Positions 8,412 through 15,635 of a stretch of DNA of 64,000 bases are shown piece by piece (the first letter of the stretch is position 1; each line of letters opens with the position of its first letter). The stretch comes from Terriglobia bacterium (GTDB taxonomy: Bacteria; Acidobacteriota; Terriglobia; JAJPHL01; JAPKYU01). The position numbers were made by a program, and so were the translations under genes. Under the pieces are notes generated by a model. That model was not told where the DNA came from, made no database searches, and saw only the letters and a program-made list of their open reading frames with translations. The stretch spans positions 512,001 to 576,000 of the forward strand of contig CBDCVK010000010.1 in assembly GCA_965223005.1 (NCBI GenBank), in the 5' to 3' direction.

Positions 8412-8506
8412 TGGCGGAAGGTTATGGGAATCGAACCCATCGCTGCTCGTGAGAAACAGCCACCGGCTTTGAAGGCCGGGCGAGTCACCAGACCCGATTA
8501 CCTTCC
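8412..8506 (-). tRNA. selC: tRNA-Sec (anticodon UCA)
   Basis: Reverse complement GGAAGGTAATCGGGTCTGGTGACTCGCCCGGCCTTCAAAGCCGGTGGCTGTTTCTCACGAGCAGCGATGGGTTCGATTCCCATAACCTTCCGCCA: 95 nt, UCA anticodon, extended acceptor stem, long variable arm, GCCA end. Confidence 0.97.
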
Positions 8507-11781: not shown

Positions 11782-12327
11782 TCATCCCCCGGCAGACAGA
11801 CGACTGCAAACCGCATAGGCGCCGTTGGGGTCAATCGCGCTCCCGCCTTTCTCGATGTGGCGAATGATCCCCTGCTTATCCACCACGAAGGTGACCCGCA
11901 GAGCGAAGTTGCGCTCGGGATCCAGAATCCCGTATTTCTTGCTGACCTCGCGCATGAAGTCGCTCAGAAGCGGAAACTTCACCCCGAGGTCTTCGGCGTA
12001 ACGACGATTGGCGTAAGAGCTATCCACGCTGATGCCCAGCACCTGCGAGCCGGTCTTTTCGAATTTGGCGATATCATCCTGATACGCCTTCAGTTCCTTC
12101 GTTCAACCACCCGTGAATGCCAGGACGTAGAAGGCCAGTACCACATTCTTCTTCCCCTTGAAATCGCTCAACCGGACCGGCTTGTTGTTCTGATCCGGAA
12201 GCGTGAAATCGGGCGCGGAATCGCCTACTTTCAGATGGGTCATGACGTCGGGTGGCGGCTGAGCCGGGGCCAGACTGAGTGGCGCGGGCAGAATCAAAGC
12301 CAGTGCCAAAGCTGTTCGACAAACCAT
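11782..12327 (-). CDS. Exported peroxiredoxin (AhpE/BCP-like), predicted selenoprotein (U75)
   Basis: Track ORFs 12103..12504 and 11782..12042 are in the same frame and joined by TGA (12105-12103): FYVLAFTGG-U-TKELKAYQDDIAKFEKTGSQVLGISVDS. U sits at the peroxidatic TxxC position. RBS GGAGGT and a signal peptide follow from ATG 12327. Confidence 0.9.
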
Positions 12328-12505
12328 ACGCCTACCTCCAGTTTCTTGCAATTTCGGGATTTGCACAGGATTCCGTCGATGCGCTCGTTCCTTGCACGAC
12401 CCCCGAATTATGTACCCAAATCCTGGCTTCGTCCAGTTTTTGGTAGCGGACACTCCACTGCGGCGAGGGTCCTGCAGCGGCGGTGGGAGTCCACGGCTTT
12501 CCATC

Positions 12506-12534
12506 TTGACACCACGAGGACCCGAAGCTAGGAT
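12506..12534 (+). promoter_or_regulatory. Sigma70-type promoter TTGACA-N17-TAGGAT
   Basis: Perfect -35 (12506-12511), 17-nt spacer, -10 TAGGAT (12529-12534). Confidence 0.7.
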
Positions 12535-12561
12535 GCGCCTACACGAGAAAGGAGGTGGTCG

Positions 12562-12609
12562 ATGTTGCAGGATCCATTATGTAGGCCCCGTGAGGTGGTC
12601 GCGCCTTAG
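12562..12609 (+). CDS. 15-aa small ORF MLQDPLCRPREVVAP
   Basis: Lies after the promoter and an extended SD AGAAAGGAGGTG. Too short for the ORF track. Confidence 0.45.
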   Translation: MLQDPLCRPREVVAP

Positions 12610-12698
12610 GGCGGAATTTGCCTCAGAGCCGTCGTGTTTTCTTTCTGCTTGCCTGTGGCTGTAGAATTCCGCCTCAGGTACTCTTACGCGGCTACCGG

Positions 12699-12736
12699 CG
12701 CCGGGCAGGAGGGGTTGGCCCTTCGGCCCGGCGTTT
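12699..12736 (+). terminator. Intrinsic terminator-like hairpin
   Basis: CGCCGGGC(12699-12706)/GCCCGGCG(12726-12733) with inner GAGGG/CCCTT, followed by TTT. Confidence 0.55.
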
Positions 12737-12843
12737 CGCTTCTATCAGGGTGCTGAAAATTAGCGACTGGATCCGCTCAGAACCGTTTTCTGACGCCCGC
12801 AGTTCCTTAACTGTAACCACTTGTCAAGCCGCAACCCACTGAT

Positions 12844-13917
12844 CTAAAACAGCTTGAACTTGATGGTCAGATACTTTTTCGGGTCCTTCCGGAAGTCGGC
12901 GATCAGGCCGCGCATCTCCAGGCTGAAGGTATTGACGTTCTCATAAAACGCCTGGTCATGAAGGAACCTGCCGAAGGAACCCTCACCGCGTTCCAGCCGG
13001 CCGGCGATCTTGTCAATACGGCCCATCGCGGAATTGGCTCGGTTGTAAAACGATTCGTCCTTCAGCAGCCGGCCGACCGTCCCACGCCCCGCGTTCACGT
13101 CAGTAACCACGCGATTGGCCCGGGTCATCAACTGGTCGGCGTTTTCGTAGAGCCCGGGATCATAGATGAACCTGCCCAGGGAACCCTTGCCCTCGCGCAC
13201 TTCGTCAAGCACTCCGTCCACTTTCGTCACGCTGCTTCGGATCTCGTCGTACAGGTCTTCGGTCATGATCAGCTTGCCCAGGGTCCCCTTTCCCGCAGCA
13301 GCATTGGAAATTAGAAGGCGCGCGTCATTCACGGTCTGGTCCGCCTTCCGCCACAGCGCCTCGTCGTAGAGGAGCTTTCCCAGACTGCCTTCTCCGGACT
13401 CGACCTGCTCTATAACGCGGTCCACACGCCCCGCGATGCGATTGAGTTTGGTCATTGCGTCGGCGCCCGTAGCCAGGACCTCACTGAGTTCCGGGGTTTC
13501 CTTGAGCTTGATCTCCCCGCCGGCCTGGATCAGCGGCTGCCCGGGACTGCCCCGGGTAATATTGATGAAGCGTTGGCCCAGCAGCCCTTCGGCATCCAGG
13601 CGGGCCAGGGAGTCGGTGCGCAGTTCCTGCTGATACTTGCGCAGGATGCGCATGACCACCTCCACCGACCGGTCGGGCTCGTGGCTGCCGGAGACGCGGA
13701 TTTCCGCCACGTTGCCCACGTCAATGCCGGTCAGGCGCACCGGGTCGCCGGTCTTCAACCCGGCGGCGTCCTCCATGAAGACGCTGATGAGATATTTGCG
13801 CTCCAACAGGCCTTCGCCAGTCATCAGGAAGACCACGGTGGCAAAAATGATCAGGCTGGTCAGGACCAACAGGCCAACGCGCAGTTGGGTCCACTGAAGT
13901 TGCTTGGGTTGCGGCAT
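12844..13917 (-). CDS. mlaD: MCE/MlaD-family substrate-binding protein
   Basis: N-terminal TM, MCE motifs AAGLKTGDPVRLTGIDVG and GLLGQRFINI, helical GxLGK repeats. Confidence 0.9.
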   Translation of the reverse strand: MPQPKQLQWTQLRVGLLVLTSLIIFATVVFLMTGEGLLERKYLISVFMEDAAGLKTGDPVRLTGIDVGNVAEIRVSGSHEPDRSVEVVMRILRKYQQELRTDSLARLDAEGLLGQRFINITRGSPGQPLIQAGGEIKLKETPELSEVLATGADAMTKLNRIAGRVDRVIEQVESGEGSLGKLLYDEALWRKADQTVNDARLLISNAAAGKGTLGKLIMTEDLYDEIRSSVTKVDGVLDEVREGKGSLGRFIYDPGLYENADQLMTRANRVVTDVNAGRGTVGRLLKDESFYNRANSAMGRIDKIAGRLERGEGSFGRFLHDQAFYENVNTFSLEMRGLIADFRKDPKKYLTIKFKLF

Positions 13918-13935
13918 GCGACCTCCTCAAGGAAA

Positions 13936-14751
13936 CTACAAGACAAACTTTCGCACGTATGAGTCCTGCGAGCGAAACAGTTCCTGATGGCTGCCGTCGA
14001 AGACGACTTCGCCTTCGCGCAGGACCAAGAACGAAGTGTTGGTGTCCACCTGTCGACCGTCGGAATCAGCGGGCAGCAGGCGACCAGCCGTTTCATCAAA
14101 ATAGTAGTTGGCCACCACGTCGGCGTCCTGGAGGCGGTGCGTCACCAGCAGGCTGCTGACGTCCTGCAGGTCGCCCAGACGGATGATCAACGAGACGATG
14201 GCACGTCCGGTGAGCGGGTCCAGGCCGCCGGTGGGCGAGTCGTAGAGCATCAGTGGCGGCTCGCCGACGAAAGCTCGAGCAATCGCCACCCGGCGGCGCA
14301 TGCCGCCGGACAGCTCCGAGGGCAATTTTTGCATGGCGTCTTCCAGATCCACAAAGCGCAGTGCCTGGCGCACCCGTCGCTCCTCCTCCTCGGGCGGCAG
14401 GGCCCGGTCCCCCTGGAAGACGTAGCCGACGTTCTCGGCCACGCTGAGCGAGTCGAACAGCGCGCTTTCCTGGAACACCATGCCGATTTTCTGCCGGATG
14501 GGCTGCAGTGTCTCCTCGCCGAACCCGGTGATGTCCTCTCCAAAAACCGAGACGCGACCCGAATCGGGACGGAACAGCCCCAGCGCCGTCTTCAGCAACA
14601 CCGATTTGCCCGAGGCCGTGGCTCCCAGCAGAACCTTGGTTTCGCTGCGCGCGAGCCGGAAGCTGATGTCGTGCAGCACCGGTGCATCGTCCAGGGTCAG
14701 TTGGACCCGGTCGAACTCCAGCACTACCTCCGAACTGCGCTCCAGCGCCAT
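13936..14751 (-). CDS. mlaF: MlaF-family ABC ATPase
   Basis: GATASGKS, FQESALFDSL, LSGGMRRR, YDSPTGGLDP. Confidence 0.9.
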   Translation of the reverse strand: MALERSSEVVLEFDRVQLTLDDAPVLHDISFRLARSETKVLLGATASGKSVLLKTALGLFRPDSGRVSVFGEDITGFGEETLQPIRQKIGMVFQESALFDSLSVAENVGYVFQGDRALPPEEEERRVRQALRFVDLEDAMQKLPSELSGGMRRRVAIARAFVGEPPLMLYDSPTGGLDPLTGRAIVSLIIRLGDLQDVSSLLVTHRLQDADVVANYYFDETAGRLLPADSDGRQVDTNTSFLVLREGEVVFDGSHQELFRSQDSYVRKFVL

Positions 14752-15530
14752 TACATGACGGCCAGGAGGAACTTGGTAATGAAGAAATCGGTTGCCAGGA
14801 TCAGCACCGAAGCGGCCACCACCGCTTGGGTCGTCGAGCGTCCCACCCCCTCGGTGCCGCCGCGGGTGGTCAGTCCGAAATAACAGCCCACCATGGAGAC
14901 GATGAAACCGAAAACGAACGGCTTCACCAGGCCCTGGAACACGTCTTCGAAGTGCAGGGCCTGATAGGCGCTGGTCCAGTACTGGATCGGGTCCATGCGG
15001 ATGATGAAGAAGGAAACCACGAAGCCGCCGATCAGACCCACGAAATCGGCGATCACCGTCAGCAGCGGCAACATCGTCACTGTAGCCACCACCCGAGGGG
15101 TCACCAGTTTCTTGCTGGGGTCGGTGCCCAGGGCGCGCATGGCGTCTATCTGCTCGCTCACCGCCATGGAGCCCAGCTCACTGGCCATGCCAGAACTGTT
15201 GCGCCCGGCCACCATCAACGCCGTCAGAACCGGTCCCAGCTCTTTGACTAGCGACAGGGCCACCAGTTGACCGGCGAGGGAGACAGCTCCGAAAGTTTGC
15301 AGCATCTGGGAGGTCTGCAACGCCAGCACCGCCCCGGTGAAGAACCCGGCCAGGATCGCAATAGGCAGCGAGCCTACACCGATGATGTCCATCTGGACCA
15401 GAATGTCGGCCCAATAGCGGGGGCGGGAGAAGAGGTTTCTGATGGCCCGCGCGCCCAGAAAGGTGAACTCCTGGACGGCGAAGACTTTGCCTTTGGCAAA
15501 ATCGGCAGGCAGGGTGAAGATGCGGTTCAA
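14751..15530 (-). CDS. mlaE: MlaE-family ABC permease
   Basis: [37 protein letters not shown]. Start uncertain (TTG 15530 chosen). Confidence 0.9.
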
Positions 15531-15635
15531 GGTGATTCGTTTTTCCTCACCGCGCGGCTTCCAAATTCCAATGTAACACAAACTGCCCGCTCCGACGCAC
15601 ACGCCCCCAGCGGTACAATAGAATGCCAACGAGCG

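Follow-up and report, generated by a model that had tools for sequence, protein, structure and literature searches.

We describe a small RNA (sRNA) gene on the forward strand of the window, by which we denote the whole analysed stretch of 64,000 nucleotides (nt) from a Terriglobia bacterium (Acidobacteriota; contig CBDCVK010000010.1). The unit is a real, separately transcribed sRNA gene and constitutes an acidobacterial, divergent member of the known sRNA family Ms_IGR-5 (RF02471). We are confident that it belongs to this family and represents a stand-alone RNA with a translated mini open reading frame (mini-ORF). The fuller statement, namely that the acidobacterial form of Ms_IGR-5 is an independently transcribed RNA of about 200 nt which acts by engaging the ribosome, appears to us somewhat more probable than its opposite. 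The Ms_IGR-5 family thereby extends beyond the Actinobacteria into the Acidobacteriota. Conserved in both phyla are a full-length complement of the 16S tail, an open frame with a drifting peptide, and a helix locking the end of the frame to the terminator region. This conservation favours a direct interaction with the ribosome over a classical base-pairing sRNA or a micropeptide, and suggests a ribosome-centred function.

From 5' to 3', the unit is composed of an ACAC start, a long Shine-Dalgarno sequence, a mini-ORF, helix strand b, the stop codon, a central hairpin, a joining motif, helix strand b' and a terminator. The individual features are as follows.

12506..12534, plus strand: sigma-70-type promoter, based on consensus matches and a layout kept in relatives.
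12541..12743, plus strand: whole small RNA, approximately 203 nt, a divergent Ms_IGR-5 (RF02471) homologue according to the Rfam model match.
12546..12560, plus strand: very long Shine-Dalgarno sequence with 15 contiguous pairs (one G-U) to the 3' tail of the genome's own 16S ribosomal RNA.
12562..12609, plus strand: mini-ORF of 15 codons and a TAG stop, MLQDPLCRPREVVAP; conservation extends to frame, start and stop but not to the peptide.
12590..12603, plus strand: invariant GUGAGGUG, then helix strand b GGUGGUCGCG (12594-12603); read as a second Shine-Dalgarno sequence in an earlier note on this DNA.
12610..12673, plus strand: variable central hairpin P2, directly 3' of the stop codon, with a 9-bp base formed by GGCGGAAUU and AAUUCCGCC.
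12674..12686, plus strand: joining segment UCAGGUACUCUUA, counterpart of the conserved AAUCC motif of the family in 3' block alignments.
12687..12696, plus strand: helix strand b' CGCGGCUACC, predicted to pair with the last codons of the mini-ORF, alternatively with the Shine-Dalgarno copy.
12698..12743, plus strand: terminator-like GC-rich hairpin (12698-12733) with a U-rich tail (12734-12743), from fold and sequence.

At Rfam gathering thresholds nothing was found at the locus, the only matches in the window being the selenocysteine tRNA (tRNA-Sec) and one further tRNA. A relaxed scan matched RF02471 at 12541-12743 (+) with 31.9 bits and E = 1.9e-5. The match covers the whole model (1-184/184) on one strand and is intergenic, between two minus-strand genes. 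The earlier note had taken the unit for unannotated, which this match contradicts; the unit is not new. Four RF02471 matches elsewhere in the genome, with E-values of 0.9-6.5, were treated as noise, so that the locus provides the only match with E < 0.9; in the control genomes, RF02471 matches at E up to 10 occurred in 7 of 14. A Chloroflexi-1 match on the terminator (16.3 bits, E = 1.8) was treated as chance. When 12 further loci were scanned, the four actinobacterial controls reached 98-190 bits, while the eight acidobacterial copies were split into three above the gathering cut-off of 45 (60.0, 55.2 and 49.6), three below it (40.1, 37.3 and 33.2) and two that went undetected. Counting the window copy, three of nine acidobacterial copies scanned pass the cut-off. 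Three blocks are shared with RF02471: the 5' block ACAC..AAGGAGGUGGUC, the internal GUGAGGUG, and the 3' block AAUCC..CAGNCACC ahead of the terminator.

Relatives were collected by several searches. When the 261-nt unit was used as a BLAST query on 41 genomes of its class, the window's own among them, 17 showed a match, and 13 of these carry the 5' block. A pattern scan covering one genome per species detected the 5' block together with GTGAGGTR in at least 117 public contigs. Among the 80 contigs listed, 54 belong by record title to Actinomycetota (Mycobacterium, Micromonospora, Rhodococcus, Nocardioides and others) and 26 to Acidobacteriota (Terriglobia, Blastocatellia and Polarisedimenticolia). 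Of 401 evenly sampled genomes of the phylum, 17 (from 13 of 228 genera) have the exact 20-mer of the 5' block, each a single time, and none has its reversed control; one of these 17 is the unpublished genome G188, on which only this count depends. The named relatives of the window copy are metagenome-assembled Terriglobia or Acidobacteriota and thus lie outside the actinobacterial range of the family's name. Over 200 nt, a copy from the window's own family (L010) does not differ from a Terriglobia record (L084). Another genome of the window's family (G005, locus L012) retains the 3' half alone, i.e., the 3' arm of the central hairpin, the joining motif, b' and the terminator, with 76% identity to 12643-12741 and neither 5' block nor mini-ORF in front; this may be a decayed or rearranged copy.

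The unit has its own signals for transcription. As the earlier note had pointed out, a promoter with -35 element TTGACA (12506-12511), a 17-nt spacer and -10 element TAGGAT (12529-12534) precedes it on the plus strand, with 10 of 12 consensus matches. Promoter-like sites number two in the 1.2-kb region, compared with 0.5 +/- 0.7 in shuffled sequences. Among unique upstream sequences of the family, 50 of 53 from Acidobacteriota and 42 of 54 from Actinobacteria retain the layout TTGNM-N16-19-TANNNT-N5-8-ACAC. This conserved spacing places an A at +1, and the predicted transcription start is hence the A of ACAC at 12541. At the other end, a GC-rich hairpin is formed by GCGCCGGGC (12698-12706) and GCCCGGCG (12726-12733), followed by TTTCGCTTCT. 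A simple terminator scan called no site, this hairpin included; relatives have an equivalent hairpin with clearer T runs.

The Shine-Dalgarno sequence AGAAAGGAGGTGGTC at 12546-12560 begins five bases from the predicted 5' end. The earlier note had compared it with a typical 16S 3' end. The genome's own 16S gene ends in ...GGATCACCTCCTTTCT, and the proposed pairing over 15 nt with one G-U is therefore real. The 3.24-Mb genome has 10,703 GGAGG sites on its two strands; leaving aside the antisense of the 16S gene, no other shows so long an uninterrupted complementarity to the 16S tail, and three sites reach 14 nt. The 11-mer AGGAGGTGRTC is not enriched genome-wide (14 sites, 16 for the reversed control); it is the full 15-mer alone that stands out. 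All collected homologues share an identical ACACNNGRAAGGAGGTGGTC, with the reservation that the pattern searches required it. Taken with the mini-ORF data below, the comparison indicates that this extreme ribosome-binding site and the small ORF are under selection.

The start codon of the mini-ORF, ATG at 12562, lies 6 nt after GGAGG, and the frame runs through 15 codons to the TAG at 12607-12609, translating to MLQDPLCRPREVVAP*; the ORF thus follows the Shine-Dalgarno sequence as the earlier note had it. For comparison, 108 elements were collected, 107 of them unique. All 107 have a start codon (ATG, GTG or TTG) 5-12 nt downstream of GGAGG; its frame contains GAG GUG followed by three more codons and then the stop, which falls exactly 15 nt after GAGGU. 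The 28 elements that were not selected on the second motif reveal the same arrangement of start, frame and stop. As a frame control, 97 unique 5' blocks were examined: a start codon spaced for the Shine-Dalgarno sequence opens a frame that includes the second motif in all 97 for frame 0, and in 0 of 97 for each of the frames +1 and +2. Mini-ORF lengths range from 11 to 22 codons in frame; therefore every length change kept phase. The stops, at one fixed place, are distributed as TAG 82, TGA 9 and TAA 5 among 96 unique ORFs. Three loci (L146, L147 and L148) carry an additional in-frame GAGGUG upstream of the invariant one, within a longer mini-ORF of 19 codons.

The encoded peptide shows a different picture. 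Variable nucleotides fall on first and second codon positions as frequently as on third positions in the 96 unique ORFs, without any third-position pattern. Counted from the end, G, R, C and S are all found at residue -6, and R, W, G, D, K and L at residue -8, while residue -2 varies between E, A and V. The only invariant residues are Glu-Val, which coincide with a nucleotide motif and a helix strand. Since the peptide is not conserved and the frame is kept, selection appears to act on translation of the frame and on the RNA motifs rather than on the product. On this comparative evidence, the mini-ORF is judged to be under selection for translation. For the window copy, the case for translation is composed of the comparative data (107 of 107 elements, 97 of 97 in the frame control) and of ribosome footprints on mycobacterial homologues, described in passages of PMC4974804.

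The earlier note had proposed a duplicated Shine-Dalgarno sequence. The 10-mer GAGGTGGTCG indeed occurs at 12552 and again at 12592, exactly 40 nt apart, yet this duplication is not a conserved architecture. Among the 107 elements, the exact 10-mer is repeated in three only, the window copy and two genomes of its genus; four further copies share a 9-mer and 82 only GAGGTGG, and the spacing between the two motif copies ranges from 32 to 62 nt. The conserved feature is GUGAGGUG, at positions -17 to -11 before the stop, which is invariant in 96 of 96 unique ORFs and is found equally in the 28 elements that were collected without requiring it. From GGUG onward, this second motif can pair with b', CGCGGCUACC (12687-12696), the segment directly before the terminator. 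We conclude from the comparison of sequences that the second copy, which encodes the invariant Glu-Val, is the predicted 5' strand of a covarying long-range helix, b:b'.

In the underlying analysis, b' was located by a sequence profile of the 3' block (AAUCC...CAGNCACC) and not by pairing in 100 of 107 copies; six were placed by eye and one truncated locus was dropped. For the window, which lay beyond the reach of the profile, the 3' block was placed by eye from copies of the same genus. In 74 unique b/b' combinations, the native duplexes have a mean energy of -14.45 kcal/mol, compared with -12.21 +/- 0.22 for permuted partners, and 0 of 2000 permutations were as good. At positions 4-9 of b:b' several Watson-Crick pair types are found; position 5, for instance, is GC in 39, GU in 22, CG in 5, AU in 3 and UA in 1. 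When the partner of b was sought without restriction across 500 nt, GC-rich sites in the flanks were chosen at many loci, and the sequence-profile anchor took the place of this search. In the Rfam consensus structure, the 3' b' segment is unpaired and the Shine-Dalgarno sequence is paired with the ORF end instead. This hairpin was rejected, as all six pairs are kept in only 6 of 26 b types, with 5 of 6 in the window.

The plus strand folds with -90.6 kcal/mol (z = -2.51; 2 of 200 shuffles as good), the minus strand with z = -0.99 (31 of 200 as good). The long hairpin and the GC-rich terminator hairpin are both located where the earlier note had placed them. The base of the central hairpin is formed by GGCGGAATT (12610-12618) and AATTCCGCC (12665-12673), and the stop codon abuts it. 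In relatives, the central domain, measured from the stop codon to b', varies from about 20 to about 265 nt. Enforcing b:b' in the window RNA costs 2.8 kcal/mol (-90.6 for the closed and -87.8 for the open form). With the first 24 nt held single-stranded, the fold has -80.9 kcal/mol, and b:b' and the central hairpin are formed. The Shine-Dalgarno sequence pairs with b' no less well than b does in 4 of 52 acidobacterial copies and in 0 of 53 from Actinobacteria. As this pairing is much poorer in other clades, the possible switch in the window represents a local elaboration. In 30 of 52 acidobacterial but only 8 of 53 actinobacterial copies, the Shine-Dalgarno sequence is more complementary to the central domain than in 95 of 100 shuffles. 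In Terriglobales-type copies of about 260-400 nt (e.g., L037, L066, L101 and L157-L160), a small hairpin immediately 5' of the joining motif carries GACCACCUCU in its loop; this sequence is a perfect 10-nt complement of the Shine-Dalgarno sequence and mimics the 16S tail.

With respect to expression, four metatranscriptome runs of one study each contain one contig of 152-219 nt that lies on 12553-12771 or 12557-12713 with 0 differences, so that the main part of the unit is covered. These contigs give no cover at 12330-12552 or beyond 12771, which is not evidence of transcript ends. Ms_IGR-5 itself has been catalogued and validated by RNA-seq and Northern blot. According to passages of PMC8079986 and PMC8780764, RNA-seq confirmed it in S. 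lividans, and in S. avermitilis it forms a transcription unit of its own; a passage of PMC10454040 equates it with ncMSMEG15794c. The part of PMC4974804 concerned with MS_IGR-5 homologues describes ribosome footprints on them, obtained by ribosome profiling (Ribo-seq), in M. abscessus and M. smegmatis. According to a passage of a preprint (bioRxiv 10.1101/2021.12.14.472595), IGR-5 was captured in M. smegmatis as an RNA capped with nicotinamide adenine dinucleotide (NAD), with A at +1, and was called "validated but yet uncharacterized". Our limited literature search returned no function assigned to Ms_IGR-5 and no description of its ribosome-related features.

How might such an RNA engage the ribosome? 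We tentatively put forward a translation-gated unfolding, well aware that it may prove wrong. A 30S subunit would dock on the long Shine-Dalgarno sequence and translate the mini-ORF. On reaching the stop codon, the ribosome would have melted b:b' and the base of the central hairpin. This would free a single strand of about 35 nt, comprising the 3' arm of the central hairpin, the joining motif and b', which could act elsewhere or refold onto the Shine-Dalgarno sequence. In the genus of the window, b' could pair with either GAGGUGGUCG copy, such that a closed form (Shine-Dalgarno sequence paired) and an open form would be nearly equal in energy. In every copy, the invariant GAGG is located 8 nt before the last sense codon, so that a ribosome terminating there could use its anti-Shine-Dalgarno sequence to hold on to it.

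A more far-reaching version, which we regard as speculative and unlikely as a whole, is that of a two-phylum, translation-gated riboregulator reading the state of the ribosome pool, a kind not described so far. Here, the 30S subunit would dock via the whole free 16S tail, and the ribosome at the mostly UAG stop would be held by the invariant GAGGUG 8 nt before the codon in the peptidyl (P) site. Behind it, a second, initiating ribosome would just fit on the shortest ORFs, whose 11-12 codons span about 30-33 nt between the start and the last sense codon. Only the ribosome-loaded state would free the 3' strand, with joining motif and the anti-Shine-Dalgarno-like b', for RNAs or proteins.

Several observations weigh against a ribosome-engaging member of Ms_IGR-5 as outlined above. 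The score of the window copy, 31.9 bits, is below the RF02471 gathering cut-off of 45, and membership therefore rests on homology through intermediates. Of the 107 unique elements, 79 were picked by a pattern requiring GTGAGGTR as well as the 5' block (the other 28 were not), i.e., both motifs were preconditions of their selection. Left unconstrained, the window RNA folds best with the Shine-Dalgarno sequence paired to b', which would hinder ribosome binding, and an internal anti-Shine-Dalgarno sequence in the central domain of the window is not above chance (z = -0.09; 46 of 100 shuffles as good). As to b:b', a plain column alignment of 20 acidobacterial copies gives 72.5% pairing cells compared with 70.3% in shuffles (17 of 500 as high), although the covariation score on the same alignment is 0.191 versus 0.159 (0 of 500 as high); the support is modest here because a one-base bulge shifts the register between clades. 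RNAalifold on a gappy MAFFT alignment did not find b:b' and returned only 7 local pairs, none of them covarying, an uninformative outcome. The invariance of GUGAGGUG could be structural rather than ribosomal. The contigs from RNA libraries can show neither strand nor ends, and DNA can occur in such libraries. Finally, in a survey of the two longest flanking ORFs per side at 41 acidobacterial and 38 actinobacterial loci, no neighbour is common to both phyla, except for a common response-regulator-type cluster in 3 loci. From this survey no trans target or partner gene emerged; a target search was not run.

Other explanations account for part of these features. The long Shine-Dalgarno sequence might do nothing else than hold a 30S subunit, thereby titrating subunits or shielding the 5' end from 5'-end-dependent nucleases, with the mini-ORF providing for an orderly exit of the ribosome. 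Its place 5 nt from the predicted 5' end, its pairing with the whole free 16S tail, the lack of peptide conservation and the existence of known 5'-proximal Shine-Dalgarno stabilisers such as STAB-SD all speak for such a decoy or stabiliser. It nevertheless leaves unexplained why GUGAGGUG is invariant and the stop always at a fixed distance from it (107 of 107), why b:b' covaries and why the joining motif is conserved, and a titration of ribosomes would need very high copy numbers; we deem it improbable. Still less do we expect a micropeptide gene whose 15-residue peptide, or at least its C-terminal Glu-Val part, would be the functional product. Strict retention of frame, start and stop and the invariant Glu-Val would fit, but a length of 11-22 codons, the variable residues -6, -8 and -2, and first and second codon positions that vary as often as the third do not. 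Moreover, Glu-Val overlaps the nucleotide motif and the helix strand. The micropeptide considered in the earlier note is consequently an unlikely product, its sequence not being conserved.

The stop codon itself could be the point of interest, if the RNA were a sensor of termination by release factor 1 or of stalling. The upstream GAGGUG and the helix ahead would then hold the ribosome at the mostly UAG stop, and the fate of the RNA would report termination capacity. TAG in 82 of 96 unique ORFs and GAGG 8 nt before the last sense codon in every copy are in agreement with this idea. However, TGA (9) and TAA (5) occur as well, and the preference for UAG may be structural, because its A and G sit in the base of the central hairpin in many copies. 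No linked release-factor gene was seen in the neighbour survey either, and we see little prospect for such a sensor. Least of all do we expect the unit to be a type I toxin-antitoxin locus or to act in cis on a neighbouring gene as its leader or attenuator. The order of Shine-Dalgarno sequence, short ORF, hairpins and terminator resembles ribosome-dependent attenuators, but the next gene downstream, an MlaD-domain ORF at 12844-13917 (-), is convergent, and neighbours and their orientations vary across the 41 and 38 loci. The earlier note had seen no downstream gene on the plus strand and had dismissed an attenuator leader in favour of a stand-alone unit. We arrive at the same view, given the conserved promoter, the unit's own terminator, the convergent gene without any co-oriented one, and the varying neighbours. 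Its toxin-antitoxin proposal, by contrast, finds no backing: MLQDPLCRPREVVAP is short, polar and hydrophilic, and the opposite strand, with z = -0.99, folds no better than shuffles and gives no sign of a structured antisense RNA. An origin of the unit by chance was rejected.

A comparison with described systems places the preferred reading, an RNA that engages the ribosome, in context. Ms_IGR-5 of M. smegmatis (IGR-5, ncMSMEG15794c; RF02471) matches the window copy over the full length of the model. Both are single-copy, stand-alone genes and share the ACAC...AAGGAGGUGGUC 5' end, a mini-ORF ending in GAG GUG, three codons and a stop, the AAUCC joining motif, b' and the terminator. They differ in the host, here an acidobacterium, in the score (31.9 versus the 45-bit cut-off) and in the central hairpin. 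The start codon follows the Shine-Dalgarno sequence at 6-7 nt here and at 10-12 nt in Ms_IGR-5, and the ORF has 15 codons instead of 12. The helix b:b' is absent from the RF02471 consensus structure.

The dual-function sRNAs SgrS/SgrT, RNAIII/hld and SR1/SR1P have a conserved, active peptide and an ordinary ribosome-binding site. Like these, the unit is a small RNA with its own promoter and terminator that carries a short ORF; unlike them, it shows no conservation of the peptide and has an extreme ribosome-binding site. STAB-SD, the 5' mRNA stabilisers of Bacillus, need no start codon or ORF. They have in common with the unit the near-perfect, 5'-proximal Shine-Dalgarno pairing with the 16S tail, whereas here start, frame and stop all appear to be under selection. 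In attenuation leaders of the ermC type, translation of a short ORF remodels downstream hairpins; a short ORF and downstream hairpins are present here as well, but no co-oriented gene follows. The features conserved in both phyla provide concrete mutants that can be tested in M. smegmatis or Streptomyces.

The genomic neighbourhood of the window copy consists of two sets of minus-strand genes, a divergent selenocysteine peroxiredoxin gene (11785-12327) and convergent genes for MlaE, an ABC-ATPase and MlaD (12844-15629). The latter form an Mla-type lipid-transport set of MlaE permease, ABC ATPase and MlaD-domain protein, and 100 nt lie between the end of this set and the 3' end of the sRNA. The peroxiredoxin is of the AhpC/TSA type (Pfam E = 5.5e-40) and contains an in-frame TGA (12103-12105, codon 75, motif FTGG-U-TKE) at what we take to be the expected position of the peroxidatic cysteine. 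The tRNA-Sec gene (8416-8506, minus strand) is located 3.3 kb from it. Across the 41 and 38 loci surveyed, neighbours are conserved within clades only, and their orientation varies. In 4 of the 41 acidobacterial loci (L017, L046, L066 and L101), a convergent gene for a small NUDIX hydrolase directly follows the sRNA. Some NUDIX enzymes can remove NAD caps; the neighbour may thus reflect a link to the NAD-capped IGR-5, or plain synteny. A flavoprotein gene (PF02441) is found upstream in 5 of the 41 acidobacterial loci (L035, L059, L061, L101 and L156). In one metagenome-assembled Terriglobia genome, a reverse-transcriptase (RVT_1) gene is located directly upstream of the sRNA (L045:700-2259).

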